A DNA stretch of 25,957 nucleotides from a virus (lineage: Duplodnaviria > Heunggongvirae > Uroviricota > Caudoviricetes), in IMG/VR virus record IMGVR_UViG_2693429508_000004, one strand, 5' to 3'. Within the stretch, counting starts at the first letter, position 1, and the number at the start of each line of letters is the position of its first letter. The position numbers were made by a program, and so were the translations under genes. Positions 196 to 25,177 of the stretch are shown piece after piece. The notes under the pieces are model-generated. The model was not told where the DNA came from and did no database searches. It was given only the letters and a program-made list of their open reading frames with translations.

Positions 196-237
196 GTGAT
201 ATGAGGGGGCGTAGTCTGCACGATTATCTAAATTGCT

Positions 238-468: not shown

Positions 469-469
469 C

Positions 470-759: not shown

Positions 760-819
760 GAGGTTGCCCTGTATTCAGTGTCGCTGATTTGTATTGTCTG
801 AAGTTGTTTTTACGTTAAG

Positions 820-997: not shown

Positions 998-998
998 N

Positions 999-1320
999 TT
1001 GATGCAGATCAATTAATACGATACCTGCGTCATAATTGATTATTTGACGTGGTTTGATGGCGTAGATGCACGTTGTGACATGTAGATGATAATTATTATC
1101 ATTTTGCGGGTCCTTTCCGGCGATCCGACAGGTTACGGGGCGGAAGGCGCGCGGGTTTTCGCTATTTATGACAATTTTCCGGTTTAAGGCGTTTCCGTTC
1201 TTCTTCGCCGTAACCTAATGTTTTTATTTAAAACACCCCCTGAAAAGAAAGGAAACGACAGGTGCTGAAAACGGGCTTTTTGGCCTCTGTCGTTTCCTTT
1301 CTCTGTTTTTGTCCGTGGAA
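999..1320. other. cos region, copy 2 (variant cosN at 1137-1148 plus cosB with Nu1-binding repeats), contiguous with nu1
   Basis: Same right-end sequence as copy 1 with SNPs; cosN position reads GGGCGGAAGGCG. Downstream are the lambda left-end motifs CGTTTCCGTTCTTCTTCG (R3-like, 1190-1207) and the inverted pair GGAAACGACAG (1251-1261) / CTGTCGTTTCC (1287-1297), which correspond to R2/R1. Confidence 0.8.
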
Positions 1321-1326
1321 TGAACA

Positions 1327-1846
1327 ATGGAAGTCAACAAAAAGCAGCTGGCTGACATTTTCGGTGCGAGTATCCGTACCATTCAGAACTGGCAGGAACA
1401 GGGAATGCCCGTTCTGCGAGGCGGTGGCAAGGGTAATGAGGTGCTTTATGACTCTGCCGCCGTTATAAGATGGTATGCCGAAAGGGATGCTGAAATTGAG
1501 AACGAAAAGCTGCGCCGGGAAGTTGAAGAACTGCGGCAGGCCAGCGAGACAGATCTCCAGCCAGGGACTATTGAGTACGAACGCCATCGACTTACGCGTG
1601 CGCAGGCCGACGCACAGGAGCTGAAAAATGCCAGAGACTCCGCTGAAGTGGTGGAAACCGCATTCTGTACTTTCGTGCTGTCGCGGATCGCAGGTGAAAT
1701 TGCCAGTATTCTCGACGGGATCCCCCTGTCGGTGCAGCGGCGTTTTCCGGAACTGGAAAACCGACATGTTGATTTCCTGAAACGGGATATCATCAAAGCC
1801 ATGAACAAAGCAGCCGCGCTGGATGAACTGATACCGGGGTTGCTGA

Positions 1847-1872
<26 letters not shown>
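1327..1872 (+). CDS. nu1: Terminase small subunit Nu1
   Basis: Track ORF of 181 aa, MEVNKKQLADIFGASIRTIQNWQEQGMPVLRGGGKGNEV..., near-identical to lambda Nu1 as recalled. Lies immediately downstream of cosB and overlaps the start of A. Confidence 0.96.
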
Positions 1873-5553
<3,681 letters not shown>

Positions 5554-5573
<20 letters not shown>

Positions 5574-5847
5574 TCTCCCGCATATTGCCAGCATGGCTTT
5601 TAATGAGCCGCTGATGCTTGAACCCGCCTATGCGCGGGTTTTCTTTTGTGCGCTTGCAGGCCAGCTTGGGATCAGCTGCCTGACGGATGCAGTATCCGGC
5701 GACAGCCTGACTGCCGGAGAGGCACCCGCGGCGCTGGCGTTATCCGGTGATGATGACGGACCACGACAGGCCCGCAGTTATCAGGTAATGAACGGCATCG
5801 CCGTGCTGCCGGTGTCCGGCACGCTGGTCAGCCGTACTCGGGGATGA
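5554..5847 (+). pseudogene. C: N-terminal fragment of head maturation protease/scaffold gene C, ended by a frameshift
   Basis: GTG at 5554 opens ...VTAELRNLPHIASMAFNEPLMLEPAYARVFFCALAGQL...VSGTLVSRTRG, then TGA at 5845-5847. Lambda gpC is a single ORF of about 439 aa with this N-terminus. Confidence 0.7.
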
Positions 5848-6854
5848 CCGGTTACAACGGCATTATCGCCCGTCTGCAACAGGCTGCCAGCGACCCGATG
5901 GTGGACGGCATTCTGCTCGATATGGACACACCGGGCGGAATGGTGGCGGGAGCATTTGACTGCGCTGACATCATCGCCCGTGTGCGTGACATAAAGCCGG
6001 TATGGGCGCTGGCCAATGACATGAACTGCAGCGCAGGTCAGCTGCTTGCCAGTGCCGCCTCCCGGCGTCTGGTCACGCAGACCGCCCGGACAGGCTCCAT
6101 CGGCGTCATGATGGCTCACAGTAATTACGGCGCTGCACTGGAGAAACAGGGCGTGGAAATCACGCTGATTTACAGCGGCAGCCATAAGGTGGATGGCAAC
6201 CCCTACAGCCATCTACCGGATGATGTCCGGGAAACATTGCAGTCCCGGATGGATGCAACCCGCCGGATGTTTGCACAGAAGGTGTCGGCATATACCGGCC
6301 TGTCCGTGCAGGCTGTGCTGGATACCGAGGCTGCAGTGTACAGCGGTCAGGAGGCCATTGATGCCGGACTGGCTGATGAACTTGTTAACAGTACCGATGC
6401 GATCACCGTCATGCGTGATGCACTGGATGCACGTAAATCCCGTCTCTCAGGAGGGCGAATGACCAAAGAGACTCAATCAACAACTGTTTCAGCCACTGCT
6501 TCGCAGGCTGACGTTACTGGCGTGGTGCAAGCGACGGAGGGCGAGAACGCCAGCGCGGCGCAGCCGGACGTGAACGCGCAGATCACCGCAGCGGTTGCGG
6601 CAGAAAACAGTCGCATTATGGGGATCCTCAACTGTGAGGAGGCTCACGGACGCGAAGAACAGGCACGCGTGCTGGCCGAAACCCCCGGTATGACCGTGGA
6701 AACGGCCCGCCGTATTCTGGCCGCAGCACCACAGAGTGCACAGACGCGCAGTGACACTGCGCTGGATCGTCTGATGCAGGGGGCACCGGCACCGCTGGCT
6801 GCAGGTAACCCGGCATCTGATGCCGTTAACGATTTGCTGAACACACCAGTGTAA
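5844..6854 (+). CDS. C: Remainder of gene C (S49-type protease region plus Nu3 region) in a different frame from the N-terminal fragment
   Basis: 336 aa from ATG 5844, MTGYNGIIARLQQAASDPMVDGILLDMDTPGGMVAGAFD...NDMNCSAGQ...; matches lambda gpC residues from about 104 onward, including the region around the recalled catalytic Ser. Confidence 0.8.
   Translation: MTGYNGIIARLQQAASDPMVDGILLDMDTPGGMVAGAFDCADIIARVRDIKPVWALANDMNCSAGQLLASAASRRLVTQTARTGSIGVMMAHSNYGAALEKQGVEITLIYSGSHKVDGNPYSHLPDDVRETLQSRMDATRRMFAQKVSAYTGLSVQAVLDTEAAVYSGQEAIDAGLADELVNSTDAITVMRDALDARKSRLSGGRMTKETQSTTVSATASQADVTGVVQATEGENASAAQPDVNAQITAAVAAENSRIMGILNCEEAHGREEQARVLAETPGMTVETARRILAAAPQSAQTRSDTALDRLMQGAPAPLAAGNPASDAVNDLLNTPV
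6249..6854 (+). CDS. nu3: Scaffolding protein Nu3 (in-frame internal start nested in C)
   Basis: ATG at 6249 (MDATRRMFAQKVSAYTG...) is in frame with the C ORF and shares its stop. Nesting of nu3 in C is established for lambda; no independent signal in the sequence. Confidence 0.5.
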   Translation: MDATRRMFAQKVSAYTGLSVQAVLDTEAAVYSGQEAIDAGLADELVNSTDAITVMRDALDARKSRLSGGRMTKETQSTTVSATASQADVTGVVQATEGENASAAQPDVNAQITAAVAAENSRIMGILNCEEAHGREEQARVLAETPGMTVETARRILAAAPQSAQTRSDTALDRLMQGAPAPLAAGNPASDAVNDLLNTPV

Positions 6855-6863
6855 GGGATGTTT

Positions 6864-7196
6864 ATGACGAGCAAAGAAACCTTTACCCATTACCAGCCGC
6901 TGGGCAATAGTGACCCGGCTCATACCGCAACCGCGCCCGGCGGATTGAGTGCGAAAGCGCCTGCAATGACCCCGCTGATGCTGGACACCTCCACCCGTAA
7001 GCTGGTTGCGTGGGATGGCACCACCGACGGTGCTGCCGTTGGCATTCTTGCGGTTGCTGCTGACCAGACCAGCACCACACTGACGTTCTACAAGTCCGGC
7101 ACGTTCCGTTATGAGGATGTGCTCTGGCCGGAGGCTGCCAGCGACGAGACGAAAAAACGGACCGCGTTTGCCGGAACGGCAATCAGCATCGTTTAA
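6864..7196 (+). CDS. D: Head decoration protein D
   Basis: [42 protein letters not shown]...AISIV, 110 aa from ATG 6864; near-identical to lambda gpD. Confidence 0.96.
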
Positions 7197-7213
7197 CTTT
7201 ACCCTTCATCACT

Positions 7214-7238
7214 AAAGGCCGCCTGTGCGGCTTTTTTT
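7214..7238 (+). terminator. Hairpin plus T7 between D and E (terminator-like)
   Basis: GCCGC-CTGT-GCGGC followed by TTTTTTT. Confidence 0.4.
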
Positions 7239-7251
7239 ACGGGATTTTTTT

Positions 7252-8277
7252 ATGTCGATGTACACAACCGCCCAGCTGCTGGCGGCAAATGAGCAGAAAT
7301 TTAAGTTTGATCCGCTGTTTCTGCGTCTCTTTTTCCGTGAGAGCTATCCCTTCACTACGGAGAAAGTCTATCTCTCACAAATTCCGGGACTGGTAAACAT
7401 GGCGCTGTACGTTTCGCCGATTGTTTCCGGTGAGGTTATCCGTTCCCGTGGCGGCTCCACCTCTGAATTTACGCCGGGATATGTCAAACCCAAGCATGAG
7501 GTGAATCCGCAGATGACCCTGCGTCGCCTGCCGGATGAAGATCCGCAGAATCTGGCGGACCCGGCTTACCGCCGCCGTCGCATCATCATGCAGAACATGC
7601 GTGACGAAGAGCTGGCCATTGCTCAGGTCGAAGAGATGCAGGCAGTTTCTGCCGTGCTCAAGGGCAAATACACCATGACCGGTGAAGCCTTCGATCCGGT
7701 TGAGGTGGATATGGGCCGCAGTGCGGCGAACAACATCACACAGTCCGGCGTCACGGAGTGGAGCAAGCGTGACAAGTCCACGTATGACCCGACCGACGAT
7801 ATCGAAGCCTACGCGCTGAACGCCAGCGGTGTGGTGAATATCATCGTGTTTGACCCGAAAGGCTGGGCGCTGTTCCGTTCCTTCAAAGCCGTCAAGGAGA
7901 AGCTGGATACCCGTCGCGGCTCTCATTCCGAGCTGGAGACAGCGGTAAAAGACCTGGGCAAAGCGGTGTCCTATAAGGGAATGTATGGCGATGTGGCCAT
8001 CGTCGTGTATTCCGGACAGTACGTGGAAAACGGCGTCAAAAAGAACTTCCTGCCGGACAACACGATGGTGCTGGGGAACACTCAGGCTCGCGGTCTGCGC
8101 ACCTATGGCTGCATTCAGGATGCGGACGCACAGCGCGAAGGCATTAACGCCTCTGCCCGTTACCCGAAAAACTGGGTGACCACCGGCGATCCGGCGCGTG
8201 AGTTCACCATGATTCAGTCAGCACCGCTGATGCTGCTGGCTGATCCTGATGAGTTCGTGTCCGTTCAACTGGCGTAA
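7252..8277 (+). CDS. E: Major capsid protein E
   Basis: MSMYTTAQLLAANEQKFKFDPLFLRLFFRESYPFTTEKVYLSQIPGLVNMALYVSPIVSGEV...; 341 aa from ATG 7252; near-identical to lambda gpE. Confidence 0.97.
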   Translation: MSMYTTAQLLAANEQKFKFDPLFLRLFFRESYPFTTEKVYLSQIPGLVNMALYVSPIVSGEVIRSRGGSTSEFTPGYVKPKHEVNPQMTLRRLPDEDPQNLADPAYRRRRIIMQNMRDEELAIAQVEEMQAVSAVLKGKYTMTGEAFDPVEVDMGRSAANNITQSGVTEWSKRDKSTYDPTDDIEAYALNASGVVNIIVFDPKGWALFRSFKAVKEKLDTRRGSHSELETAVKDLGKAVSYKGMYGDVAIVVYSGQYVENGVKKNFLPDNTMVLGNTQARGLRTYGCIQDADAQREGINASARYPKNWVTTGDPAREFTMIQSAPLMLLADPDEFVSVQLA

Positions 8278-8278
8278 T

Positions 8279-8305
8279 CATGGCCCTTCGGGGCCATTTT
8301 CTCTC
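8279..8305 (+). terminator. Hairpin after E (TGGCCC-TTCG-GGGCCA plus T-rich tail)
   Basis: 6-bp GC-rich stem followed by TTTTCTCTC. Confidence 0.35.
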
Positions 8306-8318
8306 TGTGGAGGAGTTC

Positions 8319-8717
8319 ATGACGAAAGATGAACTGATTGCCCGTCTTCAGGAGCTGGGTGAGCAATTGAACCGCGATGTCAGTTTGACGGGAACGAAAG
8401 AAGAACTGGCGCTTCGTGTGGCAGAGCTGGAAGAAGAGCTTGATGACACGGATGAAACTGCCGGTCAGGACACCCCTCTCAGCCGGGAAAATGTGCTGAC
8501 CGGGCATGAAAATGAGGTGGTATCAGCGCAGCCGGATACCGTGATTCAGGATACGGCTGAACTGGTCACGGTCGTGGCACTGGTGACGCTGCATACTGAT
8601 GCACTTCACGCCACGCGGGATAAACCTGTGGCATTTGTGCTGCCGGGAACGGCGTTTCGTGTCTCTGCCGGTGTGGCAGCCGAAATGACAGAGCGCGGCC
8701 TGGCCAGAATGCAATAA
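8319..8717 (+). CDS. FI: DNA-packaging/head completion protein FI
   Basis: MTKDELIARLQELGEQLNRDVSLTGTKEELALRVAELEEELDDTDETAGQ...; GGAGG Shine-Dalgarno-like motif at 8312-8316; matches lambda gpFI. Confidence 0.93.
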   Translation: MTKDELIARLQELGEQLNRDVSLTGTKEELALRVAELEEELDDTDETAGQDTPLSRENVLTGHENEVVSAQPDTVIQDTAELVTVVALVTLHTDALHATRDKPVAFVLPGTAFRVSAGVAAEMTERGLARMQ

Positions 8718-8728
8718 CGGGAGGCGCT

Positions 8729-9082
8729 GTGGCTGATTTCGATAACCTGTTCGATGCTGCCATTGCCCGCGCCGATGAAACGATACGCGGGTACATGGGA
8801 ACGTCAGCCACCATGACATCCGGTGAGCAGTCAGGTGCGGTGATACGTGGTGTTTTTGATGACCCTGAAAATATCAGCTATGCCGGACAGGGCGTGCGCG
8901 TTGAAGGCTCCAGCCCGTCCCTGTTTGTCCGGACTGATGAGGTGCGGCAGCTGCGGCGTGGAGACACGCTGACCATCGGTGAGGAAAATTTCTGGGTAGA
9001 TCGGGTTTCGCCGGATGATGGCGGAAGTTGTCATCTCTGGCTTGGACGGGGCGTACCGCCTGCCGTTAACCGTCGCCGCTGA
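8729..9082 (+). CDS. FII: Head-tail connector protein FII
   Basis: GTG start; MADFDNLFDAAIARADETIRGYMGTSATMTSGEQSGAVIRGVFDDPENISYAGQG..., 117 aa; matches lambda gpFII. Confidence 0.94.
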   Translation: MADFDNLFDAAIARADETIRGYMGTSATMTSGEQSGAVIRGVFDDPENISYAGQGVRVEGSSPSLFVRTDEVRQLRRGDTLTIGEENFWVDRVSPDDGGSCHLWLGRGVPPAVNRRR

Positions 9083-9093
9083 AAGGGGGATGT

Positions 9094-9672
9094 ATGGCCA
9101 TAAAAGGTCTTGAGCAGGCCGTTGAAAACCTCAGCCGTATCAGCAAAACGGCGGTGCCCGGTGCCGCCGCAATGGCCATTAACCGCGTTGCTTCATCCGC
9201 GATATCGCAGTCTGCGTCACAGGTTGCCCGTGAGACAAAGGTACGCCGGAAACTGGTAAAGGAAAGGGCCAGGCTGAAAAGGGCCACGGTCAAAAATCCG
9301 CAGGCCAGAATCAAAGTTAACCGGGGGGATTTGCCCGTAATCAAGCTGGGTAATGCGCGGGTTGTCCTGTCCCGCCGCAGGCGTCATAAAAAGGGGCAGC
9401 GTTCATCCCTGAAAGGTGGCGGCAGCGTGCTTGTGGTGGGTAACCGTCGTATTCCCGGCGCGTTTATTCAGCAACTGAAAAACGGCCGGTGGCATGTTAT
9501 GCAGCGTGTGGCCGGGAAAAACCGTTACCCCATTGATGTGGTGAAAATCCCGATGGCGGTGCCGCTGACCACGGCGTTTAAACAGAATATTGAACGGATA
9601 CGGCGTGAACGTCTTCCGAAAGAGCTGGGCTATGCGCTGCAGCATCAACTGAGAATGGTAATAAAGCGATGA
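9094..9672 (+). CDS. Z: Tail completion protein Z
   Basis: 192 aa, MAIKGLEQAVENLSRISKTAVPGAAAMAINRVASSAISQSASQVARE...; lambda gpZ length and position. Confidence 0.94.
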   Translation: MAIKGLEQAVENLSRISKTAVPGAAAMAINRVASSAISQSASQVARETKVRRKLVKERARLKRATVKNPQARIKVNRGDLPVIKLGNARVVLSRRRRHKKGQRSSLKGGGSVLVVGNRRIPGAFIQQLKNGRWHVMQRVAGKNRYPIDVVKIPMAVPLTTAFKQNIERIRRERLPKELGYALQHQLRMVIKR

Positions 9673-10064
9673 AACATACTGAACTCCGTGCAGCCGTACT
9701 GGATGCACTGGAGAAGCATGACACCGGGGCGACGCTTTTTGATGGTCGCCCCGCTGTTTTTGATGAGGAAGATTTTCCGGCAATTGCCGTTTATCTCACC
9801 GGCGCTGAATACACGGGCGAAGAGCTGGACAGCGATACCTGGCAGGCGGAGCTGCATATTGAAGTTTTCCTGCCTGCTCAGGTGCCGGATTCAGAGCTGG
9901 ATTCGTGGATGGAGTCCCGGATTTATCCGGTGATGAGCGATATCCCGGCACTGTCAGATTTGATCACCAGTATGGTGGCCAGCGGCTATGACTACCGGCG
10001 CGACGATGATGCGGGCCTGTGGAGTTCAGCCGATCTGACTTATGTCATTATCTATGAAATGTGA
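9669..10064 (+). CDS. U: Tail tube terminator protein U
   Basis: 131 aa, [54 protein letters not shown]...; matches lambda gpU. Confidence 0.95.
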
Positions 10065-10071
10065 GGACGCT

Positions 10072-10812
10072 ATGCCTGTACCAAATCCTACAATGCCGGT
10101 GAAAGGTGCCGGGACCACCCTGTGGGTTTATAAGGGGAGCGGTGACCCTTATGCGAACCCGCTTTCAGACGTTGACTGGTCGCGTCTGGCAAAAGTTAAA
10201 GACCTGACGCCCGGCGAACTGACCGCTGAGTCCTATGACGACAGCTATCTCGATGATGAAGATGCAGACTGGACTGCGACCGGGCAGGGGCAGAAATCTG
10301 CCGGAGATACCAGCTTCACGCTGGCGTGGATGCCCGGAGAGCAGGGGCAGCAGGCGCTGCTGGCGTGGTTTAATGAAGGTGATACCCGTGCCTATAAAAT
10401 CCGCTTCCCGAACGGCACGGTCGATGTGTTCCGTGGCTGGGTCAGCAGTATCGGTAAGGCGGTGACGGCGAAGGAGGTGATTACCCGCACGGTGAAGGTC
10501 ACCAATGTGGGACGTCCGTCGATGGCAGAAGATCGCAGCACGGTGACGGCGACGACCGGCATGACGGTGACACCCGCCAGTGCTTCCGTAGTGAAAGGGC
10601 AGAGCACCACGCTGACCGTGGCATTCCAGCCGGATGGCGCAACCGACAAGAGCTTCCGTGCGGTGTCTGCGGATAAAACAAAAGCCACCGTGTCGGTCAG
10701 TGGTATGACCATCACCGTGAAAGGTGTTGCTGCAGGCAAGGTCAACATTCCGGTCGTATCTGGTAATGGTGAGTTTGCTGCGGTTGCAGAAATCAACGTC
10801 ACCGCCAGTTAA
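10072..10812 (+). CDS. V: Major tail tube protein V
   Basis: [57 protein letters not shown]...; 246 aa from ATG 10072; matches lambda gpV including the C-terminal Ig-like region. Confidence 0.96.
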
Positions 10813-10827
10813 TCCGGAGAGTCAGCG

Positions 10828-11250
10828 ATGTTCCTGAAAACCGAATCATTTGAACATAACGGTGTGACCGTCACGCTTTCTGAACTGTCAGCCCTGCAGC
10901 GTATTGAGCATCTCGACCTGATGAAACGGCAGGCAGAACAGGCGGAGTCAGACAGCAACCGGAAGTTTACTGTGGAAGACGCCATCAGAACCGGCGCTTT
11001 TGTGGTTGCGATGTCCCTGTGGCATAACCATCCGAAGAAGACGCAGATGCCGTCCATGAATGAAGCCGTTAAACAGATTGAGCAGGAAGTGCTTACCACC
11101 TGGCCCACAGAGGCAATTTCTCATGCTGAAAACGTGGTGTACCGGCTGTCCGGTATGTATGAGTTTGTGGTGAATGATGCTCCTGAACAGGCAGAGGACG
11201 CCGGGCCTGCAGAGCCTGTTTCTGCGGGAAAGTGTTCGACGGTGAGCTGA
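10828..11250 (+). CDS. G: Tail assembly chaperone G
   Basis: 140 aa, MFLKTESFEHNGVTVTLSELSALQRIEHLDLMKRQAEQAESDSNRKF...; matches lambda gpG. Confidence 0.95.
   Translation: MFLKTESFEHNGVTVTLSELSALQRIEHLDLMKRQAEQAESDSNRKFTVEDAIRTGAFVVAMSLWHNHPKKTQMPSMNEAVKQIEQEVLTTWPTEAISHAENVVYRLSGMYEFVVNDAPEQAEDAGPAEPVSAGKCSTVS
11226..11232 (+). promoter_or_regulatory. Programmed -1 ribosomal frameshift slippery heptamer G GGA AAG (G to G-T fusion)
   Basis: GGGAAAG lies in the G frame as G-GGA-AAG, 6 codons before the G stop, and the -1 frame continues into the T ORF (GKVFDGELSFALKLAREMG...). The G-T frameshift is established for lambda. Confidence 0.85.
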
Positions 11251-11666
11251 GTTTTGCCCTGAAACTGGCGCGTGAGATGGGGCGACCCGACTGGCGCGCC
11301 ATGCTTGCCGGGATGTCATCCACGGAGTATGCCGACTGGCACCGCTTTTACAGTACCCATTATTTTCATGATGTTCTGCTGGATATGCACTTTTCCGGGC
11401 TGACGTACACCGTGCTCAGCCTGTTTTTCAGCGATCCGGAGATGCATCCGCTGGATTTCAGTCTGCTGAACCGGCGCGAGGCTGACGAAGAGCCTGAAGA
11501 TGATGTGCTGATGCAGAAAGCGGCAGGGCTTGCCGGAGGTGTCCGCTTTGGCCCGGACGGGAATGAAGTTATCCCCGCTTCCCCGGATGTGGCGGACATG
11601 ACGGAGGATGACGTAATGCTGATGACAGTATCAGAAGGGATCGCAGGAGGAGTCCGGTATGGCTGA
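11232..11666 (+). CDS. T: Tail assembly protein T region, expressed as a G-T fusion via -1 frameshift
   Basis: -1 frame ORF overlapping the 3' end of G: ...FDGELSFALKLAREMGRPDWRAMLAGMSSTEYADWHRFYSTHYFHDVLLDMHFSG...; no independent start is expected. Confidence 0.9.
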   Translation: MFDGELSFALKLAREMGRPDWRAMLAGMSSTEYADWHRFYSTHYFHDVLLDMHFSGLTYTVLSLFFSDPEMHPLDFSLLNRREADEEPEDDVLMQKAAGLAGGVRFGPDGNEVIPASPDVADMTEDDVMLMTVSEGIAGGVRYG

Positions 11667-14217
11667 ACCGGTAGGCGATCTGGTCGTTGATTTGAGTCTG
11701 GATGCGGCCAGATTTGACGAGCAGATGGCCAGAGTCAGGCGTCATTTTTCCGGTACGGAAAGTGATGCGAAAAAAACAGCGGCAGTCGTTGAACAGTCGC
11801 TGAGCCGACAGGCGCTGGCTGCACAGAAAGCGGGGATTTCCGTCGGGCAGTATAAAGCCGCCATGCGTATGCTGCCTGCACAGTTCACCGACGTGGCCAC
11901 GCAGCTTGCAGGGGGGCAGAATCCCTGGCTGATCCTGCTGCAACAGGGTGGTCAGGTTAAGGACTCCTTCGGCGGGATGATCCCCATGTTCAGGGGGCTT
12001 GCCGGCGCGATCACCCTGCCGATGGTGGGGGCCACCTCGCTGGCGGTGGCGACCGGTGCGCTGGCGTATGCCTGGTATCAGGGCAACTCAACCCTGTCCG
12101 ATTTCAACAAAACGCTGGTCCTTTCCGGTAATCAGGCGGGACTGACGGCAGATCGTATGCTGGTCCTGTCCAGAGCCGGGCAGGCGGCAGGGCTGACGTT
12201 TAACCAGACCAGCGAGTCACTCAGCGCACTGGTTAAGGCGGGGGTAAGCGGTGAGGCTCAGATTGCGTCCATCAGCCAGAGTGTGGCGCGTTTCTCCTCT
12301 GCATCCGGCGTGGAGGTGGACAAGGTCGCTGAAGCCTTCGGGAAGCTGACCACAGACCCGACGTCGGGGCTGACGGCGATGGCACGCCAGTTCCATAACG
12401 TGACGGCGGAGCAGATTGCGTATGTTGCTCAGTTGCAGCGTTCCGGCGATGAAGCCGGGGCATTGCAGGCGGCGAACGAGGCCGCAACGAAAGGGTTTGA
12501 TGACCAGACCCGCCGCCTGAAAGAGAACATGGGCACGCTGGAGACCTGGGCAGACAGGACTGCACGTGCATTCAAATCCATGTGGGATGCGGTGCTGGAT
12601 ATTGGTCGTCCTGATACCGCGCAGGAGATGCTGATTAAGGCAGAGGCTGCGTTTAAGAAAGCAGACGACATCTGGAATCTGCGCAAGGATGATTATTTCG
12701 TTAACGATGAAGCACGGGCGCGTTACTGGGATGATCGTGAAAAAAAACGCCTGGAGCGGGATGCAGCCCAAAAGAGGGTAGATCAACAGCGTCAACAGGA
12801 CAAAAATGCGCAGCAGCAGAGCGATACCGAAGCGTCACGGCTGAAATATACCGAAGAGGCGCAGAAGGCTTACGAACGGCTGCAGACGCCGCTGGAGAAA
12901 TATACCGCCCGTCAGGAAGAACTGAACAAGGCACTGAAAGACGGAAAAATCCTGCAGGCAGATTACAACACGCTGATGGCGGCGAAAAAGGATTATGAAG
13001 CGACGCTGAAAAAGCCGAAACAGTCCGGCGTGAAGGTGTATGCGGGCGATCGTCAGGAAGACAGTGCTCATGCGGCCCTGCTGACGCTTCAGGCAGAACT
13101 CCGGACGCTGGAGAAGCATGCCGGAGCGAATGAGAAAATCAGCCAGCAGCGCCGGGATTTGTGGAAGGCAGAAAGTCAGTTCGCGGTACTGGAGGAGGCG
13201 GCACAACGTCGCCAGCTGTCCGCACAGGAGAAATCCCTGCTGGCGCATAAAGACGAGACGCTGGAGTACAAACGCCAGCTGGCTGCACTTGGTGACAAGG
13301 TTACGTATCAGGAGCACCTGAATGCGCTGGCGCAGCAGGCGGATAAATTCGCACAGCAGCAACGGGCAAAACGGGCAGCCATTGATGCGAAAAACCGGGG
13401 GCTGACTGACCGGCAGGCAGCGCGGGAAGCCACGGAACAGCGCCTGAAGGAACAGTATGGCGATAATCCTCTGGCGCTGAATAACGTCATGTCAGAGCAG
13501 AAAAAGACCTGGGCGGCTGAAGACCAGCTTCGCGGGAGCTGGATGGCAGGCCTGAAGTCCGGCTGGAGTGAGTGGGAAGAGAGCGCCACGGACAGTATGT
13601 CACAGGTTAAAAGTGCAGCCACGCAGACCTTTGATGGTATTGCACAGAATATGGCGGCGATGCTGACCGGCAGTGAACAGAACTGGCGCAGCTTCACCCG
13701 CTCCGTGCTGTCCATGATGACAGAAATTCTGCTTAAGCAGGCAATGGTGGGGATTGTCGGGAGTATCGGCAGCGCCATTGGCGGGGCTGTTGGTGGCGGC
13801 GCATCCGCGTCAGGTGGTACAGCCATTCAGGCCGCTGCGGCGAAATTCCATTTTGCAACTGGGGGATTTACGGGAACCGGCGGCAAATATGAGCCAGCGG
13901 GGATTGTTCACCGTGGTGAATTTGTCTTCACGAAGGAGGCAACCAGCCGGATTGGCGTGGGGAATCTCTACCGGCTGATGCGCGGCTATGCGGAAGGTGG
14001 TTATGTGGGCGGTGCCGGAAGTCCGGCGCAGATGCGGCGGGCTGAAGGCATTAATTTTAATCAGAACAATCACGTGGTGATTCAGAACGACGGCCCCAAC
14101 GGGCGGGCAGGGCCGCAGCTGATGAAAGCGGTGTATGAGATGGCCCGCAAGGGGGCACAGGATGAACTCCGGCTGCAGTTGCGTGATGGCGGTATGTTAT
14201 CAGGGAGCGGTGGATGA
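11659..14217 (+). CDS. H: Tail tape measure protein H
   Basis: 852 aa, MAEPVGDLVVDLSLDAARFDEQMARVRRHFSGTESDAKKTAAVVEQ..., with long coiled-coil-like Q/A/K/E-rich middle and glycine-rich C-terminal region; lambda gpH position and size (853 aa recalled). Confidence 0.96.
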   Translation: MAEPVGDLVVDLSLDAARFDEQMARVRRHFSGTESDAKKTAAVVEQSLSRQALAAQKAGISVGQYKAAMRMLPAQFTDVATQLAGGQNPWLILLQQGGQVKDSFGGMIPMFRGLAGAITLPMVGATSLAVATGALAYAWYQGNSTLSDFNKTLVLSGNQAGLTADRMLVLSRAGQAAGLTFNQTSESLSALVKAGVSGEAQIASISQSVARFSSASGVEVDKVAEAFGKLTTDPTSGLTAMARQFHNVTAEQIAYVAQLQRSGDEAGALQAANEAATKGFDDQTRRLKENMGTLETWADRTARAFKSMWDAVLDIGRPDTAQEMLIKAEAAFKKADDIWNLRKDDYFVNDEARARYWDDREKKRLERDAAQKRVDQQRQQDKNAQQQSDTEASRLKYTEEAQKAYERLQTPLEKYTARQEELNKALKDGKILQADYNTLMAAKKDYEATLKKPKQSGVKVYAGDRQEDSAHAALLTLQAELRTLEKHAGANEKISQQRRDLWKAESQFAVLEEAAQRRQLSAQEKSLLAHKDETLEYKRQLAALGDKVTYQEHLNALAQQADKFAQQQRAKRAAIDAKNRGLTDRQAAREATEQRLKEQYGDNPLALNNVMSEQKKTWAAEDQLRGSWMAGLKSGWSEWEESATDSMSQVKSAATQTFDGIAQNMAAMLTGSEQNWRSFTRSVLSMMTEILLKQAMVGIVGSIGSAIGGAVGGGASASGGTAIQAAAAKFHFATGGFTGTGGKYEPAGIVHRGEFVFTKEATSRIGVGNLYRLMRGYAEGGYVGGAGSPAQMRRAEGINFNQNNHVVIQNDGPNGRAGPQLMKAVYEMARKGAQDELRLQLRDGGMLSGSGG

Positions 14218-14543
14218 AAACCTTTCGCTGGAAAGTGAAGCCGGATATGGAGGTGAACTCGCAGCCATCGGTGCGTGAAGTGCGTTTTGGTGACGGGTAC
14301 TCACAGCGTATGGCGGCAGGGCTGAATGCTGACCTGAAAACATACAGGGTGACGCTTTCCGTGACCCGGGAGGAGGCCCGGCATCTGGAAGCGTTCCTGG
14401 CAGAGCACGGTGGCTGGAAGGCATTTTTGTGGAAGCCACCCTATGCATACCGGCAGATAAAGGTGACCTGTGCCGGGTGGTCTGCGCGGGTCGGGATGTT
14501 GCGCGTTGAGTTCAGCGCGGAGTTTAAGCAGGTGGTGAACTGA
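14214..14543 (+). CDS. M: Tail tip protein M
   Basis: 109 aa, MKTFRWKVKPDMEVNSQPSVREVRFGDGYSQRMAAGLNADLKTYRVTLSV...; matches lambda gpM. Confidence 0.95.
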   Translation: MKTFRWKVKPDMEVNSQPSVREVRFGDGYSQRMAAGLNADLKTYRVTLSVTREEARHLEAFLAEHGGWKAFLWKPPYAYRQIKVTCAGWSARVGMLRVEFSAEFKQVVN

Positions 14544-15241
14544 TGCAGGATATTCGCGAAGAAAGTCTGAACGAGTCGGTTAAGTCAGAGCAGTCACCGC
14601 GGGTGGTACTCTGGGAAATCGACCTGACGGTACAGGGTGGTGAGCGGTATTTTTTCTGTAATGAGCTGAATGAAAAAGGGGAGCCGGTCACCTGGCAGGG
14701 GCGTAAGTATGAGGCATACCCGATTGACGGCAGCGGCTTTGAGATGAACGGCCGGGGCAGCAGTGCCAGACCGTCGCTGACGGTGTCCAATCTGTTCGGT
14801 CTGGTCACCGGGATGGCGGAAGACCTGCAGAGTCTGGTGGGGGCCACGGTGGTCCGCCGCCGGGTGTATGCCCGTTTTCTGGATGCGGTGAATTTCGTTG
14901 CGGGCAATCCGGAGGCGGACCCGGAGCAGGAGCTGAGTGACCGCTGGGTGGTGGAGCAGATGTCGCAGCTGACAGCCATGACGGCCTCGTTTGTGCTGGC
15001 TACACCGACCGAGACGGACGGGGCGCTGTTTCCCGGTCGCATCATGCTGGCGAACACCTGTATGTGGGATTACCGGGGAGATGAATGCGGGTATAACGGT
15101 CCTGCGGTGGCGGATGAGTTCGACAACCCCACCACGGATATCCGTAAGGACAGATGCAGCAAGTGCATGCGCGGGTGTGAACTGCGCAGGAATGTCGGCA
15201 ATTTTGGCGGTTTCCTTTCCATTAATAAACTTTCGCAGTAA
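14543..15241 (+). CDS. L: Tail tip protein L
   Basis: 232 aa, MQDIREESLNESVKSEQSPRVVLWEIDLTVQGGERYFFCNELNEKGEPVTWQGRKYEAYP...; contains the C-terminal cysteine cluster; matches lambda gpL. Confidence 0.95.
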   Translation: MQDIREESLNESVKSEQSPRVVLWEIDLTVQGGERYFFCNELNEKGEPVTWQGRKYEAYPIDGSGFEMNGRGSSARPSLTVSNLFGLVTGMAEDLQSLVGATVVRRRVYARFLDAVNFVAGNPEADPEQELSDRWVVEQMSQLTAMTASFVLATPTETDGALFPGRIMLANTCMWDYRGDECGYNGPAVADEFDNPTTDIRKDRCSKCMRGCELRRNVGNFGGFLSINKLSQ

Positions 15242-15251
15242 ATCCCGGTTT

Positions 15252-15995
15252 ATGACACAGACTGAATCAGCGATTCTGGCACATGCCCGGCGGTGTGCGC
15301 CTGCGGAGTCGTGCGGCTTCGTGATAAGCACGCCGGAGGGGGAGCGGTATATCCCTTGTGTGAATATTTCCGCAGAGCCGGAGGCGTATTTTCGTATCGC
15401 ACCGGAAGACTGGCTGCGGGCAGAGATGCAGGGGGAGATTGTGGCACTGGTCCACAGTCATCCCGGTGGGCTGCCCTGGCTGAGCGAGGCTGACCGGCGG
15501 TTGCAGATAAAAAGCGCACTGCCCTGGTGGTTGGTCTGCCGGGGTGACATTCACAAATTCCGCTGTGTGCCACATCTGACAGGACGGCGCTTTGAGCACG
15601 GGGTGACGGACTGTTACACGCTGTTCCGGGATGCTTATCATCTGGCGGGGACTGAAATGCCGGATTTTCATCGCGAGGATGACTGGTGGCGCAACGGTCA
15701 GAACCTTTACCTGGACAATATGGCGGTCACCGGCTTTTACCGGGTGCCCCTGTCCTCTGCACAGGCGGGCGATATTCTGCTGTGCTGCTTTGGTGCTTCG
15801 GTACCGAACCATGCCGCCATTTACTGCGGCAACGGTGAGCTGCTTCACCATCTGCCTGAACAACTGAGTAAACGGGAGAGGTATTCCGAAAAATGGCAAC
15901 GACGAACGCATTCAGTCTGGCGTCACCGCCACTGGCACGCATCTGCCTTCACGGGGATTTACAACGATTTGGCCGCCGCCTCAGCCTGTATGTGA
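15252..15995 (+). CDS. K: Tail tip assembly protein K (MPN/JAMM-like plus NlpC/P60-like motifs)
   Basis: From ATG 15252: MTQTESAILAHARRCAPAESCGFV...ALVHSHPGGLPWLSEADRR (JAMM-like HxH...S..D) and GVTDCYTLFRDAYH (NlpC/P60-like Cys). Overlaps the start of I by about 100 nt. Confidence 0.85.
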   Translation: MTQTESAILAHARRCAPAESCGFVISTPEGERYIPCVNISAEPEAYFRIAPEDWLRAEMQGEIVALVHSHPGGLPWLSEADRRLQIKSALPWWLVCRGDIHKFRCVPHLTGRRFEHGVTDCYTLFRDAYHLAGTEMPDFHREDDWWRNGQNLYLDNMAVTGFYRVPLSSAQAGDILLCCFGASVPNHAAIYCGNGELLHHLPEQLSKRERYSEKWQRRTHSVWRHRHWHASAFTGIYNDLAAASACM

Positions 15996-16573
15996 ACACG
16001 GCAGCGGAAGCCATTCGCGCCCTGTCGATGCAGATGCCGGGCTTTCGCCGTCAGATGAACGAAGGCTGGTACCAGATACGTATTGCCGGTTATGACACGG
16101 CACCGGAGGCGGTGTACGCCCGTCTTCACGAACAGCTGGGTGAGGGAACGGTCATCCACATTGTGCCGCGACTGGCCGGGGCCGGAAAGGGTGGACTGCA
16201 GATTGTGCTGGGGGCGGCAGCCATCGTGGGCTCTTTCTTCACTGCCGGGGCATCAATGGCGTTATGGGGTTCAGCCCTGGCAGCCGGTGGTTTTTCTGCC
16301 ACCACGATGCTGTTTTCACTTGGAGCCAGCATGATTCTGGGCGGTGTGGCCCAGATGCTGGCCCCGAAGGCAAAAACACCGGATTACCGCGCAACGGATA
16401 ACGGCAGACAGAACACGTACTTTTCCTCACTGGATAACATGATTGCCCAGGGGAACCCGATGCCGGTGCCTTACGGGGAAATGCTGGTTGGCTCCCGCCG
16501 TATATCCCAGGACATCAGCACCCGTGATGAAGGCGGGGGCGGAAAGGTCGTGGTTATCGGGCGGCAGGGGTAA
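15893..16573 (+). CDS. I: Tail tip assembly protein I
   Basis: 226 aa, MATTNAFSLASPPLARICLHGDLQRFGRRLSLYVNTAAEAIRALSMQMPGFRRQMNEGWYQIRIAG... with hydrophobic glycine-rich C-terminal half; lambda gpI homolog, somewhat diverged. Confidence 0.9.
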   Translation: MATTNAFSLASPPLARICLHGDLQRFGRRLSLYVNTAAEAIRALSMQMPGFRRQMNEGWYQIRIAGYDTAPEAVYARLHEQLGEGTVIHIVPRLAGAGKGGLQIVLGAAAIVGSFFTAGASMALWGSALAAGGFSATTMLFSLGASMILGGVAQMLAPKAKTPDYRATDNGRQNTYFSSLDNMIAQGNPMPVPYGEMLVGSRRISQDISTRDEGGGGKVVVIGRQG

Positions 16574-16577
16574 AAAG

Positions 16578-16619
16578 AATAAAAAAATCCCGCAGTGATC
16601 GCGGACAGGAACTGCGGGA
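16578..16619 (-). terminator. Minus-strand intrinsic terminator immediately after the I stop
   Basis: Plus-strand TCCCGCAG (16588-16595) pairs with CTGCGGGA (16612-16619), with a 16-nt loop. On the minus strand the stem is followed by TTTTTTT (plus A-run 16581-16587). Confidence 0.45.
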
Positions 16620-16677
16620 GAGTTACGAAGATTAAGTGTAAGGAATTATTCTTATATCACGACAAAAAAATTAACGC
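16578..16677 (-). ncRNA. Candidate ~100-nt small RNA (promoter-to-terminator unit with no ATG-initiated ORF)
   Basis: Bounded by the minus-strand promoter-like element at 16684-16711 and the terminator at 16578-16619. The minus-strand sequence between them has no ATG. Prediction only. Confidence 0.3.
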
Positions 16678-16683
16678 AGAGAA

Positions 16684-16711
16684 ATTATACGCGCCACAGT
16701 CAGTTTGTGAA
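16684..16711 (-). promoter_or_regulatory. sigma70-like promoter on the minus strand (TTCACA - 16 nt - TATAAT)
   Basis: Minus strand reads TTCACAAACTGACTGTGGCGCGTATAAT; perfect -10 hexamer (plus 16684-16689), 5/6 match at -35 (plus 16706-16711). Confidence 0.4.
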
Positions 16712-16779
16712 AATGTGAAGATATTCAGAATTTTTATGCCATTACCGGTTTTAACCAACAGGATTATCGGTGGGCATGA

Positions 16780-16819
16780 AAGAAAACCCCGGTATCTGCT
16801 GATACCGGGGTTTCTCTTT
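16780..16819. terminator. Bidirectional-looking intrinsic terminator hairpin upstream of J
   Basis: Perfect 10-bp stem CCCCGGTATC (16787-16796) / GATACCGGGG (16801-16810) with 4-nt loop; TTTCTCTTT follows on the plus strand and TTTTCTTTC on the minus strand. Confidence 0.5.
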
Positions 16820-16916
16820 AGCATGGCAGAAATGTGTTTCATGCTTTTCGGGCGAAGGATATCCGACTTCTGTACGGAATGGCAAGTGGCGGTTAATTTA
16901 TTCAGGGGAAGGCTGT

Positions 16917-19900
16917 ATGGGAAAAGGTGGCGGTAAGGCACACACGCCTCGTGAGGCGAAGGATAATCTCAAATCCACGCAGATGATGAGCGTGATTGAT
17001 GCGATTGGTGAGGGACCGATAGAAGGTCCGGTGAAGGGACTGCAGAGTATCCTGGTGAACAAAACCCCGCTGACGGACACGGACGGTAATCCCGTGATAC
17101 ACGGTGTGACGGCGGTCTGACGCGCCGGGGAGCAGGAGCAGACACCACCGGAAGGCTTTGAGTCCTCCGGTGCTGAAACCGGACTGGGCGTGGAAGTGAC
17201 GAAGGCAAAACCGGTGACGCGCACCATTACGTCCGCGAACATTGACCGCCTGCGGGTTACCTTCGGGGTGCAGTCACTGGTGCAGACCACGTCAAAGGGT
17301 GACCGAAACCCGACATCCGTCCGCCTGCTGATTCAGTTACAGCGTAACGGTAACTGGGTGACAGAAAAGGATGTCACCATTAACGGCAAGACCACCTCGC
17401 AGTTTCTGGCGTCGGTGATTCTGGATAATCTGCCTCCCCGTCCTTTTAACATCCGGATGGTCCGGGAGACAGCGGACAGCACCACGGACCAGCTGCAGAA
17501 TAAGACGCTGTGGTCGTCATACACCGAAATCATCGATGTGAAACAGTGCTACCCGAACACGGCCATTGTGGGGCTGCAGGTGGATGCGGAGCAGTTCGGC
17601 GGCCAGCAGATGACGGTGAACTACCATATCCGCGGTCGCATCATCCAGGTGCCGTCAAACTATGACCCGGAAAAACGCACGTACAGTGGTATCTGGGACG
17701 GCAGCCTGAAACCGGCATACAGCAACAATCCGGCCTGGTGTCTGTGGGACATGCTGACTCACCCGCGCTACGGCATGGGAAAACGTCTGGGGGCGGCGGA
17801 TGTGGACAAGTGGGCGCTGTATGCCATCGGGCAGTACTGCGACCAGACGGTCCCGGATGGTTTCGGGGAGACCGAGCCGCGGATGACCTTCAATGCGTAC
17901 CTGGCACAACAGCGTAAGGCATGGGACGTGCTCAGTGATTTCTGCTCGGCGATGCGCTGTATGCCGGTATGGAACGGCCAGACGCTGACGTTTGTTCAGG
18001 ACCGCCCGTCGGATGTGGTGTGGCCGTACACCAACAGCGATGTGGTGGTGGATGATAACGGCGTGGGTTTCCGCTACAGCTTCAGTGCCCTGAAGGACCG
18101 GCACACGGCGGTGGAGGTGAATTATACCGACCCGCAGAACGGCTGGCAGACCTCCACGGAACTGGTGGAAGACCCGGAAGCCATACTGCGCTACGGACGC
18201 AACCTGCTGAAGATGGACGCGTTCGGCTGTACCAGCCGCGGTCAGGCCCACCGTGCCGGACTGTGGGTGATAAAGACCGAACTGCTGGAAACGCAGACGG
18301 TGGATTTCACGCTCGGGTCTCAGGGGCTGCGGCACACACCCGGTGACATCATTGAAATCTGTGATAACGACTATGCCGGGACCCTGACCGGCGGACGTGT
18401 CCTGTCCATTGATGCTGCCACCCGCACTCTGACGCTGGACCGTGAAGTGACACTTCCGGAGACCGGTGCCGCCACGGTGAACCTGATTAACGGCAGCGGT
18501 AAGCCGGTGAGTGTGGACATCACCGAACACCCCGCGCCGGACCGGATACAGGTCAGTACCCTGCCTGATGGTGTGGAGACATACGGGGTGTGGGGACTCT
18601 CCCTGCCGTCACTGCGCCGTCGCCTGTTCCGCTGTGTCTCCGTCCGGGAAAACACGGACGGCACCTTTGCCATCACGGCGGTGCAGCACGTACTGGAAAA
18701 AGAAGCCATCGTGGATAACGGTGCCCGCTTTGAGCCGCAGTCAGGTTCCCTGAACAGCGTCATCCCACCGGCAGTGCAGCACCTGACGGCCAGTATCTGG
18801 CGCAGGCGAAATGGGACACGCCGCGGGTGGTGAAGGGTGTGCGCTTCAGTCTGCGCCTGACCAGTGGTAAGGGAACGGATGCCAGACTGGTGACCACCGC
18901 CATCACCGCAGACACGGAGCACCGTTTCAGCGGCCTGCCGCTCGGGGAATACACCCTGACGGTGCGGGCGATAAACAGCTATGGCCAGCAGGGTGAACCT
19001 GCCACCACCACCTTCCGGATTGCCGCACCGGCAGCACCGTCGCGGATTGAGCTGACGCCGGGCTATTTTCAGATAACCGCAACGCCGCATCTTGCCGTTT
19101 ATGACCCGACGGTACAGTTTGAGTTCTGGTTCTCGGAAAAGCGGATTGCGGATATCAGGCAGGTTGAAACCAGCGCCCGCTATCTTGGCACGGCGCTGTA
19201 CTGGATAGCCGCCAGTATCAATATCAAACCGGGCCATGATTATTACTTTTATATCCGCAGTGTGAACACCGTTGGCAAATCGGCATTCGTGGAGGCTGTC
19301 GGTCGGGCGAGCGATGATGCGGAAGGTTACCTGGATTTTTTCAAAGGAGAGATAGGGAAAACACATCTGGCTCAGGAGCTGTGGACGCAGATTGATAACG
19401 GTCAGCTTGCGCCTGACCTGGCTGAAATCAGGACGTCCATTACGGATGTCAGCAATGAAATCACGCAGACTGTCAATAAGAAACTGAAAGACCAGAGTGC
19501 GGCAATCCNNNNNGTCGCGGATTGAGCTGACGCCGGGCTATTTTCAGATAACCGCCACGCCGCATCTTGCGGTTTATGATCCGACGGTACAGTTTGAGTT
19601 CTGGTTCTCGGAAAAGCGGATTGCGGATATCAGGCAGGTTGAAACCACAGCACGCTATCTTGGCACGGCGCTGTACTGGATAGCCGCCAGTATCAATATC
19701 AAACCGGGCCATGATTATTATTTTTACGTTCGCAGTGTGAACACCGTTGGCAAATCGGCATTCGTGGAGGCTGTTGGTCAGCCGAGTGATGATGCATCCG
19801 GTTATCTGGATTTTTTCAAAGGCGAGATAGGGAAAACCCATCTGGCTCAGGAGCTGTGGACGCAGATTGATAACGGTCAGCTTGCGCCTGACCTGGCTGA

Positions 19901-20861
19901 AATCAGGACGTCCATTACGGATGTCAGCAATGAAATCACGCAGACCGTCAATAAGAAACTGGAAGACCAGAGTGCGGCAATTCAGCAGATACAGAAGGTT
20001 CAGGTTGATACAAATAATAACCTGAACAGCATGTGGGCTGTGAAGCTGCAGCAGATGCAGGACGGACGCCTTTATATCGCGGGTATTGGTGCCGGTATTG
20101 AGAACACCCCTGACGGCATGCAGAGTCAGGTGCTGCTGGCGGCGGACAGGATTGCGATGGTTAATCCTGCGAATGGCAACACAAAACCGATGTTTGTTGG
20201 TCAGGGCGATCAGATATTCATGAACGACGTGTTCCTGAAATGCCTGACGGCCCCCACCATTACCAGCGGTGGAAATCCATCGGCATTTTCCCTGACTCCG
20301 GACGGAAAGCTGACCGCTAAAAATGCGGATATCAGTGGCAGTGTGAATGCGAACGCCGGGACGCTCAACAATGTCACGGTAAATGAAAACTGTACGATTA
20401 AGGGCATGCTGGAGGCGACTCAGGTCAGAGGTGACTTCGTTAAAGCTGTATCCAAATCATTTCCGAAACAGGCTGGTACGTGGGGTAACACGGAAACACC
20501 AAACGGGACGGTTACAGTCACCATAAGCGATGATCATAACTTTGACCGCCAGATTATTATTCCGCCCATTATTTTTAACGGTATAGCGTATGACGATCCG
20601 GGGAGCGGAAATAACCCAGGAGGCACGCGATACACGGGTTATGGTTTTGAAGTTCGCAAAAACGGCGTATTAATCGCATCCAGAGAAACTAAAGGTGCCA
20701 TTCCCGGTAGTTACAGTGCAGTTATTGATATGCCTAGTGGTGGTGGTAGCGTCACTCTGGAGTTTAAGATTTTCCAGAAAGGCAATCAGGGGGCAGGCAA
20801 TATCACCGACTGTACGGTGATTGTGACCAAAAAAGCGGCTTCCGGCATCAGTATTCGTTGA
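16917..20861 (+). pseudogene. J: Central tail fibre / host specificity protein J, interrupted (in-frame TGA, frameshift, gap-flanked duplication)
   Basis: Four consecutive track ORFs (16917..17120, 17190..18833, 18827..19525, 19497..20861) together cover a lambda gpJ-like protein: MGKGGGKAHTPREAKDNLKSTQ..., ...ITAVQHVLEKEAIVDNG..., ...[39 protein letters not shown]..., ...[44 protein letters not shown].... The C-terminal ~200 aa differ from lambda as recalled. Confidence 0.85.
19509..19513. other. Assembly gap (5 N) inside J between two diverged ~470-bp direct repeats
   Basis: nnnnn in the sequence; 19039-19508 and 19514-19983 are about 97 percent identical by eye. Confidence 0.99.
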
Positions 20862-24500: not shown

Positions 24501-24596
24501 GGTTCACATGGACACACCATCACCGTTAACGCTGCTGGTAACGCGGAAAACACCGTCAAAAACATCGCATTTAACTATATTGTGAGGCTCGCATAA
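21513..24596 (+). CDS. stf: Side tail fibre protein Stf (full-length, uninterrupted)
   Basis: [80 protein letters not shown]..., a ~370-aa Ala/Ser/Thr-rich repeat region, and the lambda Stf C-terminus with H-x-H repeats (GAHTHSLSG...GNHTHSLSG...[49 protein letters not shown]). An alternative GTG start lies at 21507. Confidence 0.92.
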
Positions 24597-25177
24597 TGGC
24601 ATTCAGAATGAGTGAACAAGCACGGACCATAAAAATTTATAACCTGCTGGCCGGAACTAATGAATTTATTGGTGAAGGTGACGCATATATTCCGCCTCAT
24701 ACAGGTCTGCCTGCAAACAGTACCGATATTGCACCGCCAGATATTCCGGCTGGTTTCGTGGCTGTTTTCAACAGTGATGAGTCATCGTGGCATCTCGTTG
24801 AAGATCATCGGGGTAAAACGGTTTATGACGTGGCTTCCGGCGACGCGTTATTTATTTCTGAACTCGGCTCATTACCGGAAAATGTCACCTGGTTATCCCC
24901 GGAAGGGGAGTTTCAGAAGTGGAACGGCACAGCCTGGGTGAAGGATACGGAAGCAGAAAAACTGTTCCGGATCCGGGAGGCGGAAGAAACAAAAAACAGC
25001 CTGATGCAGGTAGCCAGTGAGCATATAGCGCCGCTTCAGGATGCTGTGGATCTGGAGATCGCAACGGAGAAAGAAACCTTGTTGCTGGAAGCCTGGAAAA
25101 AGTATCGGGTGTTGCTGAACCGTGTTGATACATCAACTGCACCGGATATTGAATGGCCAGTAGCACCTATAGGGTAA
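24596..25177 (+). CDS. tfa: Tail fibre assembly protein Tfa
   Basis: 193 aa, [62 protein letters not shown]...; near-identical to lambda Tfa as recalled; start overlaps the stf stop. Confidence 0.95.

Follow-up and report, generated by a model that had tools for sequence, protein, structure and literature searches.

A predicted antisense small RNA gene of the PasB/EcOnc22 family in the I-J tail gene spacer of a lambdoid prophage

Results

Two modules occupy the spacer between I and J

The window analysed here, a stretch of 25,957 nucleotides (IMG/VR record IMGVR_UViG_2693429508_000004), covers the late region, with its head and tail genes, of a lambdoid prophage. Within it, tail assembly gene I (TAA at 16571-16573) and tail tip gene J (ATG at 16917) are separated by 343 bp (16574-16916; Table 1), against 60 bp in lambda (NC_001416 15445-15504, with I ending at 15444 and J starting at 15505). 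An earlier reading of the letters alone (termed here the sequence-only reading) had given the same 343 bp and put the lambda spacer at about 60 bp, which the lambda coordinates bear out; the comparison with lambda that it suggested detected no sequence homology between the two spacers. It had also treated the extra ~280 bp of the spacer as one insert. That part stands insofar as this is extra DNA without lambda homology, but it fails insofar as the spacer is not a single unit: it is a mosaic of an sRNA module (~16578-16737) and a J-proximal module (~16738-16916), which assort independently of each other.

J itself has decayed. Compared with the nearest genome, Trp68 is replaced by an in-frame stop (W68*, 17118-17120), and a 22-bp deletion near 18790 and another frame change near 19500 follow. 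J is a pseudogene and the prophage therefore tail-defective, with the sRNA unit beside J still intact.

Table 1. Features of the I-J junction, with coordinates in the window unless an accession is given
Feature	Position	Strand	Basis or details
Tail assembly gene I	15893..16573	+	ORF list; 'tail assembly protein' in CFT073, E2348/69 and the nearest genome
Predicted primary transcript, PasB-family sRNA, W allele, ~97 nt	16581..16677	-	CM match, PasB alignment, fold
Intrinsic terminator	16581..16619	-	UCCCGCAG (16619-16612) pairs with CUGCGGGA (16595-16588), then U7 (16587-16581)
Single-stranded body	16620..16662	-	Unpaired in consensus structure; allele comparison
Sigma-70 promoter	16684..16711	-	-35 TTCACA (16711-16706); 16-nt spacer; -10 TATAAT (16689-16684)
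Conserved upstream region	16714..16740	-	A/T-rich stretch and inverted repeat TCTGA-N6-TCACA (16729-16714)
J-proximal 'long' module, ~180 bp	16738..16916	+	Runs up to J ribosome-binding region
Second hairpin	16783..16819		CCCCGGTATC (16787-16796), loop TGCT, GATACCGGGG (16801-16810); A/T flanks
Tail tip gene J, pseudogene	16917..20861	+	In-frame stop, 22-bp deletion and further frame change
CFT073 W-allele spacer	NC_004431.1 1364141-1364483		

A minus-strand unit runs from promoter to terminator

The sequence-only reading had described, on the minus strand of the spacer, a near-consensus sigma-70 promoter, about 100 nt free of ATG and an 8-bp GC stem followed by seven T residues, and all of these elements were recovered. 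The promoter (TTCACA-16-TATAAT) agrees with the consensus at 11 of 12 positions and is the single best promoter-like match within window positions 1-20000. It aligns column for column with that of E. coli E2348/69 and of 36 other variants of the unit; across the 37 variants, promoter, 5' leader and terminator are kept, and it is the transcribed body that varies.

Upstream of the -35 box lies an inverted repeat. Its half-sites, TCTGA and TCACA, are invariant in the 37-variant alignment and in prophage Sp15 of strain Sakai, and its 6-nt spacer reads ATATCT, ATTTCT, AATTCT or AACTCT. The distance of the element from the -10 box is constant at 24 nt, and this holds also for Sakai Sp15 with its poor -35 region. 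The half-sites are CRP-like, and the repeat is a candidate regulator site, possibly of the CRP type: PasB, a relative of the unit (see below), is reported at higher levels in LB than in DMEM, as catabolite control might produce, but the repeat is centred near -44.5 and not at the canonical -41.5.

Placing the start at about G16677, from the position of the -10 box, gives a predicted RNA of 97 nt from there through the U-run ending at 16581, with no AUG. The annotated 5' end of PasB, taken from read coverage, lies ~14 nt downstream of this start, past the U-run of the leader, so that a processed form of ~82 nt is possible for the window allele (termed here W) as well. Folding of the minus strand, another of the checks proposed beforehand, yields the terminator hairpin followed by U7, and upstream of it a body that is unpaired in the family consensus. 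The terminator stem has eight pairs in the window and seven in the family consensus (CCCGCAG/CUGCGGG); a simple terminator scan picked an alternative 6-pair inner stem at the identical site. The stem is invariant in nine of nine aligned alleles and almost unchanged in the 37 variants, and the 3' end of the convergent RNA and the I stop codon are 7 nt apart. Read from the plus strand, the stem has an A-run before it but no U-run after it, and the terminator is thus one-way and should not stop late transcription passing from I into J.

The body combines constant and variable stretches. The leader GCGUUA with its U-run, an (AAN)n tract, (C/U)UCCUU and AUCUUC are conserved across alleles; in W they appear as the (AAN)3 tract AAGAAUAAU (AACAAAAACAAC in PasB), an anti-Shine-Dalgarno-like UUCCUUA and the invariant AUCUUC. 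Between this block and the terminator lie 8-12 nt that differ by allele, being GUAACUCU in W and AUUUGUCUGU in PasB; this stretch, directly upstream of the terminator, occupies the position proposed for the seed. Among nine alleles no covariation was detected, the consensus structure consisting only of the 7-pair terminator stem, which never varies, and an exact-match search found no 10- to 12-mers complementary to the sRNA elsewhere in the window.

The unit belongs to the family of PasB and EcOnc22

Two small RNAs of pathogenic E. coli prophages provide the relevant comparison. PasB ('pathogenicity-associated sRNA B') belongs to a set of five prophage sRNAs that RIL-seq revealed in EPEC O127:H6 strain E2348/69, where it is encoded in prophage PP6 as an 83-nt RNA on the minus strand (NC_011601.1 1466343..1466261; Pearl Mizrahi et al., 2021, PMC8550237 and its Table S6). 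Gene I of E2348/69 stops at 1466255 and its J begins at 1466496; when this spacer is aligned with that of the window, promoter and terminator are nearly identical and the body diverges. The Northern probe used for PasB, AATCCCGCAGTGATCGCGGAGCT (PMC8550237), matches window positions 16586-16605 with its first 20 nt. EcOnc22, EcOnc23 and EcOnc24 come from prophages Sp15, Sp14 and Sp11 of EHEC O157:H7 Sakai (Tree et al., 2014, PMC4104026 Table S2). The first 23 nt of their common probe match the reverse complement of the I-J RNA of Sp15; the remainder of the probe as printed differs, possibly from PDF conversion. The Sp15 sRNA lies at NC_002695.2 2902834-2902926 (+), and the published position of EcOnc22, 2902714-2902774, is offset from it by ~120 bp because the published coordinates are those of an older Sakai record, 128 bp shorter overall; the link between EcOnc22 and the window therefore rests on the probe sequence. 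In the papers examined on PasB and on EcOnc22-24, we found no cross-reference between the two.

Units gathered from 120 viral contigs, together with those of several E. coli genomes, amounted to 37 distinct variants, and a covariance model (CM R1) was built from nine alleles, with the window type excluded. CM R1 matches the window at 16581-16677 (-) along its full length (model positions 1-97 of 97), scoring 71.7 bits (E 5e-13). The pattern AAAAAATCCCGCAGN{5,25}CTGCGGGA, used in a contig scan, was too generic and gave unrelated terminators from many phyla, which served as a negative control; across 80 unrelated loci with the same terminator stem and A-run, CM R1 scored at most 36.8 bits, and about half of the window score therefore comes from the body rather than from the terminator.

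Position, promoter and terminator agree with this assignment: the unit lies antisense in the I-J spacer with its 3' end by the I stop, as in E2348/69 and Sakai Sp15, has its own sigma-70 hexamers with the conserved upstream region, and ends in the CCCGCAG/CUGCGGG stem with a U-run of at least 7 after an unpaired body. The presumed seed differs from that of PasB, as described above, and identity in the body is 67%, so that the window RNA is a distinct allele and not PasB itself. Because the family has already been described, the unit is a small RNA gene of known type rather than a new kind of element.

General searches were less informative. The sequence-only reading had pointed to Rfam, and here the outcome was divided: no credible family emerged for the spacer, and the custom model of PasB-type alleles did match. 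Among the Rfam 15 families, none reached its gathering threshold for the spacer or gave a credible match at E up to 10 (16400-17100), because PasB is not in Rfam; the best sub-threshold score in that interval, 27.3 bits for SSRC34_2 against a threshold of 48, was driven by the second hairpin, and all others stayed below 20 bits. The AgvB/AsxR models RF02702 and RF02703 gave no gathering-score match anywhere in the window and none at E up to 10 within 16400-17100, and a location in the tail operon is also unlike theirs. A full-text literature search for the terminator sequence returned nothing. Three other small RNAs were considered and set aside: PapR of UTI89, which has a similar strain distribution but whose Northern probe CGCGGTCTTTTTTCGAATTGCGGGCTGTCGTCTCTC is absent from the spacer region; HnrS (= EcOnc10-12), which occupies other prophage positions; and sRNA-17 of RS218, by its description a 193-nt RNA of a mEp460-like prophage present in 60 of 1,676 genomes.

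The second hairpin lies in a separate J-proximal module

The sequence-only reading had also noted a second, perfect 10-bp hairpin with T-rich tails on both strands at 16787-16819. The hairpin is as described: A-U pairs can lengthen its 10 perfect pairs, either strand has T-rich runs, which reach to 16819, and its folding z is -6.1 on the minus and -5.7 on the plus strand. By its form it resembles a terminator in both directions; a simple terminator scan called it on neither strand. It belongs to a different module, outside the sRNA gene. This 'long' module is at least 99% identical in 1442 of 1451 records (1446 genomes) and is found joined to either the W or the E sRNA allele, and E2348/69 and Sakai carry non-homologous 'short' J-proximal modules of 86-96 bp instead.

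Directly before the 10-pair hairpin, the plus strand can form a further strong stem-loop (16733-16780; AUGCC..ACCGGU / AUCGGU..GGGCAU), and the 101-nt plus-strand stretch there has a folding energy of -42.6 kcal/mol (z -5.7). The long module yielded no promoter on the plus strand, so this stem-loop is probably part of the late mRNA. A second minus-strand sRNA ending at the second hairpin was considered and rejected, its only promoter candidate (TTGCCA-18-TATCCT, 9 of 12 positions) being at chance level. With no convincing promoter on either strand, we therefore claim no independent transcript from the long module.

A sense-strand hairpin and T-run occur shortly before J in lambda (15463-15490) and in every spacer variant examined, conserved in position although the sequences are not homologous. 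In the short modules the stem stays paired through C-G, U-G and U-A, the G-U pair being legal on the sense strand only; 98.3% of cells are paired, a value equalled by 97 of 500 shuffles and thus, with six sequences, weak as a statistic. The second hairpin is most likely the local version of this sense-strand element of the late transcript. It may serve as a terminator passed only by Q-modified polymerase or as a 3'-end barrier and, being symmetric, may in addition halt antisense transcription that emerges from J.

Other hairpins resembling sense-strand terminators are found between head genes of the late operon, at 5620-5641 (+), ~7215-7239 (+) and 8280-8297 (+); one of these head-gene hairpins matches the sRNA model weakly (E 0.12), via its terminator part only.

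The W allele is widespread and unannotated

In one allele or another, the sRNA unit is present in 1848 of 5426 complete E. coli genomes, i.e., about a third, in up to 9 copies. W itself, at 99% identity or more, occurs in ~636 complete E. coli genomes, including those of CFT073, S88, ATCC 25922, CE10, an avian pathogenic strain and ST131 strains, and is the common allele of major extraintestinal lineages. W-like alleles of 93-98% identity are found in Stx2c-converting phages and in phage PhiR5_1. RefSeq annotates nothing at the spacer in any of 1,667 matching records.

A recent survey of PasB, made with the E2348/69 sequence as query and a word size of 28, reported variants with only few nucleotide differences (Zhu, Shabalina and Storz, 2026, bioRxiv 10.64898/2026.05.13.724894). 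The longest exact word common to W and the 83-nt PasB is 25 nt, shorter than the word size, and the survey therefore probably missed W. The same survey reports IS009 as a frequent neighbour of PasB loci (bioRxiv 10.64898/2026.05.13.724894); the window contains a full-length match to Rfam IS009 at 24939-25137 (+), with 218.5 bits against a gathering threshold of 117, inside an open reading frame (24596-25177).

Discussion

A probable small RNA gene read against the late operon

We interpret 16581-16711 on the minus strand as a self-contained sRNA gene of the PasB/EcOnc22 family, read against the late operon, with a product that by homology would be Hfq-bound and trans-acting, and we put the probability of this reading at roughly 80%. 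The suggestion of the sequence-only reading, an antisense prophage sRNA, thereby gains support from homology to two Hfq-dependent sRNAs in the same position and orientation. The near-consensus sigma-70 promoter would fire in the lysogen with no need for phage late functions, giving a non-coding RNA of ~97 nt, possibly trimmed to ~82 nt, that would end at the one-way terminator 7 nt from the I stop codon. Its layout, with an unpaired, AAN-containing and C/U-rich 5' part, eight allele-specific nucleotides, the terminator and U7, resembles that of a Hfq-bound base-pairing sRNA. By analogy with its relatives, for which expression, Hfq dependence and multiple RNA partners have been demonstrated, the W RNA would bind Hfq and regulate mRNAs of the host and of the accessory genome in trans, with their ribosome-binding regions as the likeliest sites. 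Its target set is probably in part different from that of PasB, because the proposed seed differs, and PasB targets are not transferable to W, given that its body is only 67% identical.

Other readings of the same DNA account for part of the evidence. The RNA is complementary to the late mRNA across the I-J junction and could act mainly in cis, dampening leaky or lytic expression of J by transcriptional collision or duplex-directed cleavage, with any trans targets incidental. Such a role would explain why the unit sits strictly at this junction, and antisense, in every locus examined, and free divergence of the body would be tolerable, since an antisense RNA always matches its own locus. We nevertheless regard it as unlikely: PasB has many trans partners on Hfq in RIL-seq, pure antisense action has no need of the single-stranded UCCUU, AUCUUC and AAN tract that are conserved between alleles, and the unit has been kept intact where J is already a pseudogene. 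This last point would be expected if the unit served the host and not the phage, and it fits the view that decaying prophages keep host-useful parts.

That the spacer holds transcription signals only, as terminators or insulators, with the W promoter match fortuitous or silent and no functional RNA made, is very improbable, even if hairpins with U-runs do precede J in lambda and in every spacer variant and expression is known only from the relatives' alleles. A promoter matching 11 of 12 positions, at fixed spacing, is conserved in alleles proven to be expressed; the sRNA terminator is non-functional in the sense direction, where no plus-strand U-run follows; and the full-length CM match lies far above the terminator-only controls. 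We give hardly any credence to the last alternative, a small protein encoded by a 66-aa frame from the ATG at 16736 or by 44-aa or 94-aa minus-strand frames. The spacer ORFs have no Pfam match and PHROG matches only at E of at least 0.095, the ATG at 16736 has no Shine-Dalgarno before it and its frame crosses the 10-pair hairpin to enter J, and the sRNA itself contains no AUG. Such ORFs do exist, and phage record ASU11 places a hypothetical protein on this stretch, against which stand the 1,667 matching RefSeq records that are blank here.

Beyond the assignment of this unit to the PasB/EcOnc22 family, the variants invite a broader and more tentative proposal, to which we would give somewhat worse than even odds: the I-J junction may be a modular site for sRNA cassettes, in which constant arms (promoter, leader and terminator) flank a body swapped by recombination, with at least four body types (W, E, E3 and Sakai-type) and an independent J-proximal module. 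W, the dominant allele of extraintestinal and B2-type strains (CFT073, S88, ST131 and ATCC 25922), would then have a seed and regulon of its own, and TCTGA-N6-TCACA would bring all alleles under a common, possibly cAMP-CRP-type signal. W would have gone unrecognised because a word-28 BLAST with PasB misses it and RefSeq is blank.

What is new here is the divergent and widespread W allele, the mosaic structure of its locus and the link between the names PasB and EcOnc22-24. Roughly one in three complete E. coli genomes carries a unit that RefSeq annotates in none, and its common extraintestinal allele differs from the two studied relatives at the presumed target-recognition stretch. If expressed, W would add a Hfq-dependent regulator to strains such as CFT073 and ST131.

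Comparison with known systems

The I-J spacer of lambda resembles that of the window in having, shortly upstream of J, a sense stem-loop (ACCGCC-tgcg-GGCGGT) followed by the T-rich TTTGTCATTT, and differs from it in being 60 bp long, non-homologous and without an antisense promoter-RNA-terminator unit. Relative to lambda, the window unit is a moron in the sense of Juhala et al. (2000), i.e., extra DNA absent from the lambda junction with its own promoter and terminator, and the moron-like architecture that the sequence-only reading saw inside the tail operon is borne out on all three counts: promoter, terminator and non-lambda DNA. Unlike a classic moron, it carries an RNA gene instead of one for a protein and is oriented against the operon.

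The EHEC anti-sRNAs AgvB and AsxR (Tree et al., 2014) are likewise prophage-borne, Hfq-binding and short, with their own promoter and terminator, and they too form families in which a constant 3' part is combined with a variable targeting part containing ARN/AAN motifs. They differ in lying downstream of PR' (the classic moron site), in their length of 51-60 nt and in a conserved 42-nt 3' part, and show no sequence similarity to the window.

In Sakai Sp15 the EcOnc22 unit occupies the slot between I (ECs_2945) and J (ECs_2944) on the opposite strand, as in the window, and shares the terminator stem with U7, the AUCUUC block and the TCTGA-N6-TCACA element. Identity between the Sakai type and W is 74%, the Sakai -35 region being different and poorer and the terminator loop also differing. 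On Northern blots EcOnc22, EcOnc23 and EcOnc24 are ~85 nt long, and they are 'destabilised' without Hfq (PMC4104026).

PasB is likewise 74% identical to W overall and 67% outside the terminator; the terminator loop of W is 5 nt longer, and GUAACUCU in W stands in the place of the PasB seed AUUUGUCUGU, which has been proposed to lie just upstream of the terminator (Zhu, Shabalina and Storz, 2026, bioRxiv 10.64898/2026.05.13.724894). PasB has been detected by Northern blot, depends on Hfq for its stability and ranks 15th by number of RIL-seq interactions (PMC8550237), and its strong decrease in the RNA-seq table (log2 values of -6.8 and -2.4) is read here as hfq mutant versus wild type. The two RNAs share their place immediately behind the I stop and ahead of J, their antisense orientation relative to the tail operon, the promoter hexamers and their spacing, the leader running from GCGUUA to a U-run, the CCCGCAG/CUGCGGG stem, the U7 tract and a similar size.
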